DNA of 64,000 nucleotides, taken from NCBI RefSeq assembly GCF_006345805.1, contig NC_042998.1, positions 61,442,001 to 61,506,000 of the forward strand, written 5' to 3'. Below, one piece after another: positions 749 through 51,658 of this stretch. The stretch is from Octopus sinensis. Taxonomy: Eukaryota. The first letter of the stretch is position 1. Each line of letters opens with the position of its first letter. The position numbers and the translations under genes are program-made. Below the pieces are notes generated by a model, which ran no database searches, was not told the origin of the DNA, and saw only the letters and a list, made by a program, of their open reading frames with translations.

Positions 749-914
749 TTAACTACTTTCACATTGTGAATAATGCAATATATTTGTTGATCTGTTTTGG
801 TCATTTAGGCAAGAGCCATAAACATTCATATATCTGCTATATTCTTGCTTCATATAATCAACAAAAGCTGGCAGATGGCATCCACAAGCCATGTTGTCAT
901 TGTGTCTCAGGTCA
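749..914 (-). CDS. Last LRR half plus LRRCT cap exon
   Basis: Acceptor ctctctataattacAG. Encodes (I)[52 protein letters not shown] with four Cys in LRRCT spacing. It then either reads S-S-stop (TAA 751-749) or splices at a weak GTAGTT donor after 757. Confidence 0.85.

Positions 915-51658: not shown

Follow-up and report, generated by a model that had tools for sequence, protein, structure and literature searches.

Slit proteins are secreted and contain four capped leucine-rich repeat (LRR) domains together with EGF and LamG domains, and among adhesion GPCRs, ADGRG proteins lack LRRs, whereas the small number of LRRs in ADGRA proteins precedes an Ig domain instead of an LU domain. Exons of 72 nt, in phase 2 and encoding a single LRR, are described for brown-algal ROCO genes and gonadotropin receptors, and their duplication or skipping keeps the reading frame (PMC11378527). 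LU-domain GPCRs occur in molluscs, arthropods and starfish (PMC13719153). In octopus, the expansion of adhesion GPCRs published by Ritschard et al. (2019) includes a group 3 in which Ocbimv22014869 has LRR, GPS, 7tm_2 and Death domains; in the parts of that study covered here, LRRs are reported for 5 of 22 sequences and a Death domain for one group-3 sequence only, Ocbimv22014869 (PMC6408891).

Here we describe an LRR exon array in Octopus sinensis, using as the window a stretch of 64,000 nt in which a sequence-only reading had noticed twenty 72-nt minus-strand exons, each bounded by AG and GTRAG and each encoding one LRR without a stop or indel. Segment, profile and consensus scans all confirm this observation. 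AG-[n]-GTRAG segments on the minus strand of the window peak at n = 72, with 25 matches, compared with 2–15 matches at each of the other lengths from 60 to 84 and 8 matches at 72 on the plus strand. Twenty of these 25 encode one LRR each in a common open frame (phase 2-2), from 51587–51658 to 3358–3429, with no stops or indels (0/20) and with intact splice sites. A profile of the 20 exons recovers exactly those 20 from the 214 kb around the window (E ≤ 3e-13), plus one further match that we attribute to chance (E 1.7). An LRR consensus scan of the window gives 20 matches on the minus strand and none on the plus strand; the shuffle control gave 5 matches over 50 shuffled 64-kb sequences. A simple LRR motif scan missed the exons because the motif is interrupted by the splice site. 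Together with the LRRCT cap exon, the array comprises 1598 nt of coding sequence across 50.9 kb, as the earlier estimate of about 1.6 kb over 51 kb had indicated.

Although the array had been called hidden, it is part of an annotated protein. A search with the LRRCT exon retrieved XP_029651540.2 (O. sinensis LOC115224769, 1566 aa) at 100%, and the 20+1 exons, spliced in silico as the sequence-only reading had proposed, match residues 65–596 of this protein exactly. Pfam finds LRRNT, LRR_8, GPS and 7tm_2 in XP_029651540.2, and an octopus adhesion GPCR almost certainly carries the array as its extracellular LRR arm. The domain order is signal peptide, LRRNT, 20 LRRs, LRRCT, a probable LU domain, a SEA/HRM-like region, GAIN/GPS and 7TM. 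The exons map in order from C2:61512028 to about C2:61302790, a span of ~209 kb. Exon 1 of the gene (signal peptide and LRRNT; C2:61511838-61512028, minus strand) lies 6 kb past the right edge of the window, positions 60607–64000 of the window are part of the first intron, and the gene extends about 140 kb past the left edge. The GPS (PF01825, E 4e-13, residues 1113–1156) is located in the GAIN domain directly before TM1. The seven-helix bundle is of secretin type, with a PF00002 match and no 7tm_1 match in Pfam; among solved structures, GAIN-7TM is matched best by ADGRG2 (E 1e-51) and ADGRG6 (E 8e-48), and the O. bimaculoides orthologue aligns to ADGRG2 GAIN-7TM over 891–1335. Although one-LRR exons of 72 nt are known from Slit and LGR/RXFP-type genes, as the sequence-only reading pointed out, the octopus gene is of neither type: unlike LGR/RXFP receptors, which have a 7tm_1 bundle and no GPS, the octopus gene has both 7tm_2 and GPS, and unlike Slit, it has a single LRR domain, a 7TM region and no EGF or LamG match in Pfam. 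Gonadotropin/LGR receptors are class A, whereas the octopus gene is class B2 with concave residues conserved with period 4. Vertebrate ADGRA2/3 resemble the octopus gene in bearing LRRs, yet have an Ig domain in place of LU.

At residues ~597–689, directly after the LRRCT, is a ten-Cys pattern ending in CCxxxxCN. All three PDB matches to these residues are three-finger proteins, although all are weak (LYPD1, E 0.054; activin receptor, E 0.26 and 0.41), and one distant match carries Pfam CD59/Toxin_TOLIP. This is probably a three-finger (Ly6/uPAR, LU) domain, judging from these similarities; a search of the ESM Atlas with residues 597–692 gave no usable match. Between the ten-Cys domain and GAIN, weak SEA and HRM matches were obtained in paralogues. 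Other ectodomain modules may also duplicate: by eye, the O. vulgaris member P0005 appears to contain tandem SEA-HRM-like modules, and the family member P0039 apparently has two Cys-rich LU-like domains. The order LRR-LRRCT-Cys-rich-GAIN-7TM is also present in the snail protein KAL8620952.1 of Nucella lapillus, which is 32% identical over GAIN-7TM but whose LRRs number about four and whose activation motifs are canonical. On the evidence of this snail protein, the architecture predates cephalopods.

An LRRCT exon was expected at the end of the array and is present (757–914, minus strand; 158 nt, phase 2-1), but it most likely ends at 757, on the evidence of its splice signals, and not at 749 as first proposed. 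Position 749 is a stop met two codons past the LRRCT donor, and only on read-through. The donor is weak (GTAGTT), and four of the eight loci shown have GTAAGT at the same place. The RefSeq model splices at 757 and so connects the LRRCT exon with the exons of the probable three-finger domain, which lie immediately beyond the window. If the transcript instead read through to 749, the product would be a secreted LRR-only protein, similar to Slit or SLRPs. The weak donor and the nearby stop make a soluble isoform possible, and GPS cleavage could shed the entire arm. However, the downstream exons are intact and 80% identical to the orthologue over residues 540–1160, paralogues splice at the same place and RefSeq joins the exons. 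We consider a secreted LRR-only product highly improbable.

If the array is the arm of a receptor, how did it reach twenty repeats? In gene order (window coordinates, minus strand throughout; each exon 72 nt, phase 2-2), exons 1–4 (51587–51658, 51147–51218, 50116–50187 and 49735–49806) are of D-S, W, S and Y type. The order H, W, S, Y is then followed by exons 5–8 (44844–44915, 42701–42772, 40922–40993 and 40565–40636), exons 9–12 (37990–38061, 36628–36699, 34599–34670 and 33819–33890) and exons 13–16 (32790–32861, 28067–28138, 26363–26434 and 19765–19836). Exon 17 (16662–16733) is of H type, exon 18 (11896–11967) occupies a W-class position but reads Y-Y, exon 19 (6141–6212) is of S type and exon 20 (3358–3429) is a distinct last-LRR exon; an exon-20-like exon is also the last detected in four of five paralogues scanned. 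Identity between exons is 0.73 at lag 4 and 0.76 at lag 8, as compared with 0.63–0.66 at lags not divisible by four. In permutation tests with exon 20 excluded throughout, none of 2000 permutations reaches the period-4 excess of 0.091, and none of 5000 reaches the excess of 0.058 that is obtained without exons 5–8. The class signal is strongest at exon positions 1 and 3, which read H-D, W-Y, S-L and Y-E. In the standard LxxLxLxxNxL geometry, these exon positions face the concave sheet. Upstream intron flanks carry the class signal as well (0/5000 permutations); in downstream intron flanks no class signal was found (1559/5000).

The tetrad pattern and a recent copy containing exons 5–8 agree with the proposal that this extracellular array grew by local exon duplication. 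The copy is a recent intragenic duplication at 38513–45230 (minus strand), of which 43951–45230 matches 37097–38383 at 95% and 38513–43952 matches 17515–29169, in pieces, at 87–92%. Exon 5 is identical to exon 9 at 70 of 72 positions, exon 6 to exon 14 at all 72, exon 7 to exon 15 at 67 and exon 8 to exon 16 at 68. Judged by these alignments, exons 5–8 arose recently as a composite copy, drawn from exon 9 and from exons 14–16 together with their introns, which would be consistent with an eight-exon duplication followed by loss of four exons, or with conversion. We rejected an assembly artefact as the source of exons 5–8, since the introns differ by 5–13% and by transposable element insertions. 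We strongly infer that unequal crossing-over between similar exon-intron blocks copied the four-exon unit several times, the addition of exons 5–8 being the latest step. Since every LRR exon is 72 nt in phase 2-2, the reading frame survives when whole exons are gained or lost.

The introns are rich in transposons, as noted from the sequence. Seven of the eight intronic ORFs scanned within the array encode reverse transcriptase, endonuclease or transposase domains, as does a ninth ORF 5′ of the array (8/9 in all, from LINE and DNA-transposon remains). A LINE with endonuclease and RVT_1 domains (22811–25711, minus strand) lies in the intron between exons 15 and 16 and is absent from the corresponding intron of the duplicated block; another, with endonuclease and RVT_1 fragments (45820–48692, minus strand), lies between exons 4 and 5. 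Within the window, 45843–47335 and 56748–58239 are inverted LINE-fragment copies that are 95.6% alike, 22811–25711 and 55449–56625 are LINE copies that are 97.6% alike over 1.2 kb, and the intron between exons 17 and 18 contains a Transposase_1 (mariner-type DDE) fragment at 13073–13810. SINE-like repeats at 10651–11013, 22413–22543, 31823–32146 and 55029–55295, which we take to be octopus SINEs, contain 61–63-nt internal tandem units and have many copies in the region.

The segment starting in the first intron (60607–64000) was copied into an inverted partial duplicate, LOC118768034 (C2:61548754-61569574), which is mostly 91–96% identical. In this duplicate, the first intron runs directly into the last LRR intron, and all 20 LRR exons are lost in frame. 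The junction lies in an (AAT/ATC)n microsatellite, next to a SINE-like repeat. It has a stop in the exon after the junction, and its end is close to a 100-N assembly gap.

Selection on the array was assessed by comparing exon copies. dN/dS is 0.05 at core positions and 0.35 for 21 old same-class pairs; for the four recent exon pairs it is 0.66, from just 11 differences. These ratios support purifying selection on the array. The concave pairs persist across copies with 51% synonymous-site difference and are largely kept in the orthologue, which argues for selection, although synonymous saturation limits this comparison. Of the original proposal of a functional extracellular LRR protein, the extracellular array under purifying selection (core dN/dS 0.05) is upheld, but the array is not a stand-alone protein that ends at the cap, as it supplies the ectodomain of an adhesion GPCR of class B2.

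The tree (16 rows) identifies XP_052821851.1 of O. bimaculoides (1535 aa; Ocbimv22014869/LOC106882527) as the orthologue, with clade support of 100/100; A0A0L8FLR8, in the cluster of XP_052821851.1, is a 5′-truncated model of it. This protein has 17 LRR units compared with 20 here, plus seven helices and a Death domain. It lacks the extra tetrad (exons 5–8) and has one additional D-type unit, and the order of exons 11–20 is kept one-to-one. The repeat number is thus lineage specific, as had been predicted; an orthologue with an equal repeat count, which the sequence-only reading named as evidence against novelty, was not found in O. bimaculoides (17, not 20). The O. vulgaris model CAI9718378.1 lacks the LRR exons and is not assignable to the gene as opposed to an LRR-less duplicate, and a search for shorter relatives of the LRR region gave one unrelated match among 7999 scored. 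In supplement 2 of Ritschard et al., skin accounts for 0.71 and sucker for 0.17 of total expression of the orthologue, with a Tau of 0.96 (PMC6408891); these figures are for another species, O. bimaculoides, and a 5′-truncated model. For O. sinensis, we take splicing of the LRR exons from the orthologue and from the RefSeq model. Among the 15 joints listed, with 295 more beyond the listing, for one run that is presumed to be RNA and does not reach the TM1 exon, none coincides with an intron of the gene, a result that speaks neither for nor against expression.

RefSeq skips TM1-TM2 because the assembled TM1 exon (C2:61380173-61380269, minus strand; 97 nt) is one base short. Both the TM1 and TM2 exons exist in the genome, and with the extra base, TM1 is open and orthologue-like. 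When reads were placed on the GPS-TM3 stretch, the extra base was carried by all three sequencing runs that cover the exon. An assembly error and a private allele are indistinguishable here, as the covering runs differ from the assembly at 1–2% of letters, but the presence of the base in 3/3 covering runs leaves a pseudogene created by the TM1 frameshift unsupported. Compared with the orthologue, TM3–TM6 loops have short deletions. The Death domain is complete in O. bimaculoides (PF00531, above cut-off), while the Death exon here encodes a 39-aa remnant and then a stop. The cytoplasmic tail contains a second exon array (C2:61320408-61347854, about 94–122 kb left of the window) of 11 identical 36-nt symmetric exons (12 aa each) in 2.74-kb tandem units; a stop-containing degenerate copy and two exons of 60 nt flank it. 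Ten full units, when compared, are 99.5–100% alike, and this tail array would be either a very recent expansion or an assembly artefact.

Could the gene be decaying in this lineage, with the LRR and 11-copy tail arrays growing neutrally by unequal crossing-over that symmetric exons tolerate? The truncated Death exon, the loop deletions, the frameshifted reference TM1 exon, the broken duplicate nearby, the weak selection signal in recent exon pairs and the near-identical tandem units, each of which contributes a tail exon of 12 aa, would all fit. Decay is harder to reconcile with 20 of 20 LRR exons lacking stops and indels despite 5–13% intron divergence in the recent duplicate, with the core dN/dS of 0.05, with an intact TM1 allele in every covering run and with the one-to-one order of exons 11–20 in O. 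bimaculoides, and it appears quite unlikely.

How an intact receptor would signal is a separate question. Adhesion GPCR motifs include an autoproteolysis consensus of H-L/I followed by S/T, a tethered-agonist consensus of TxFxxLM and hinges at G6.50 and G7.50, and the hinge glycines are described as conserved in many, not all, adhesion GPCRs, that is, as typical and not obligatory (passages of PMC13197933). We aligned 16 of 17 family rows, leaving out P0010, which has no anchor motif. The autoproteolysis motif, H-L-T-S, is intact in both orthologues, and cleavage is predicted from it. W6.53 is also retained in both. In contrast, G7.50, a Gly in all 14 other aligned members, is replaced by Ser in the two orthologues. 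At G6.50, 13 of the 14 have Gly and both orthologues have Arg, and the tethered-agonist Met, present in 12/14, is missing from both, which also have a shortened stalk. G-protein coupling may be atypical in both orthologues. Since G6.50, G7.50 and the agonist Met are absent, a role as an anchor or atypical signaller is favored.

The gene belongs to a large family. In the genome we found at least 55 LRRCT-exon matches (59 candidates) and at least 45 GAIN-exon matches (48 candidates), some of them on unplaced contigs and possibly duplicates; a single LRR exon used as a genome-wide query gave 15 matches. Five paralogue loci, scanned over 30–50 kb each such that exon counts are lower bounds, contain at least 25, 14, 13, 8 and 3 72-nt LRR exons. 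For 71 of 77 internal exons, the closest exon lies in the same gene, a pattern suggesting that LRR exons expanded or were homogenised gene by gene. Exon positions 1, 3 and 4 have high entropy, and variability at positions 9, 19 and 23 is just as great as at the concave positions. No significant periodicity at periods 2–5 was found in four paralogues tested, and we rejected tetrads or dyads as a family-wide trait. The paralogue at C30:11842398-11884584 has at least 25 intact LRR exons with a maximum mutual identity of 0.79 and no periodicity. In another, at C9:7503296-7542249, RefSeq isoforms differ by single 24-aa LRR cassettes, which suggests exon skipping.

It is possible, if rather doubtful, that the receptor is an innate-immune pattern receptor, one of a germline-encoded repertoire of skin and gill LRR sensors that is diversified by exon number, concave substitutions and skipping and that couples to Death-domain adaptors as do TLR and TNFR. 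The number of LRRCT- and GAIN-exon matches, the range from 3 to 25 LRR exons in the five paralogues with most exons closest within their own gene, the entropy at positions 1, 3 and 4, the cassette isoforms and the Death domain of the orthologue are all compatible with such a repertoire, and the same exon logic is used by brown-algal ROCO candidate immune receptors (PMC11378527). However, the concave residues here are conserved within class and between species and not hypervariable. ROCO proteins, although their exons have the size and phase seen here, are intracellular GTPases whose concave sites show positive selection (PMC11378527). Positions 9, 19 and 23 vary as much as the concave positions, the one Death domain reported in group 3 is truncated here, and, in the published expression data, other group-3 genes peak in the axial nerve cord (PMC6408891).

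The best explanation overall, to which we give somewhat better than even weight, is that the array is the patterned LRR arm of an atypical adhesion GPCR. The receptor would reach the surface of skin and sucker cells and self-cleave at the GPS. Its N-terminal fragment would display a curved solenoid of ~20 repeats, on whose concave sheet the H-D, W-Y, S-L and Y-E pairs would recur every four turns, a patterned surface suited to multivalent binding of a repetitive ligand such as a matrix fibre, a glycan polymer or a microbial surface. For the 7TM part, anchoring or atypical signalling would be more likely than the action of a standard tethered-agonist G-protein receptor. In O. bimaculoides, the signal may pass through the Death domain, while the form in this genome, with a Death remnant only, would be mainly an adhesive or decoy binder. 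For this functional reading, of surface binding by an anchor or atypical signaller, the chances seem about even.

Much of the background is already known: RefSeq annotates the gene, the expansion has been described in print, and LRR exons of 72 nt in phase 2 are an established arrangement. By tree and cluster, the gene is the one in group 3 of Ritschard et al. (2019), there as a 5′-truncated model (PMC6408891). Nor is a count of twenty exceptional for this family, as a paralogue has at least 25 such exons; the period-4 structure had gone unnoticed in the sequence-only reading. The passages and supplement rows of PMC6408891 contain no exon structure, repeat number, tetrad, LU/SEA domains or altered activation motif. 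Our literature search, which largely did not cover subscription journals, found no paper on octopus LRR exon arrays and no mention of the gene identifiers in main texts, nor did it find the tetrad code, the 3-to-25 paralogue range, the 17-versus-20 difference, the altered motifs, the Death truncation or the LRR-less inverted duplicate. An octopus skin-mucus proteome lists "adhesion GPCR G6" proteins that are not assignable to a gene (PMC11431876, in part).

Our findings resolve an octopus gene expansion, published but so far undissected, into receptors that can be tested and locate the diversity of the family in the number and concave face of exon-encoded LRRs. They also correct the RefSeq model, in which TM1-TM2 was dropped through a one-base assembly shortfall. 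One member is given a putative binding surface with period 4 and an address in skin and sucker, and is predicted to signal unlike a standard adhesion GPCR. Finally, an unlikely but broader reading is that the ~50 octopus LRR-LU adhesion GPCRs form a germline- and splice-diversified body-surface repertoire, akin to VLR or Dscam but GPCR-wired, in which this member would have a four-repeat code for a periodic ligand and Death-domain signalling instead of G-protein coupling. If true, this would bear on skin-contact recognition in cephalopods, which lack adaptive immunity.
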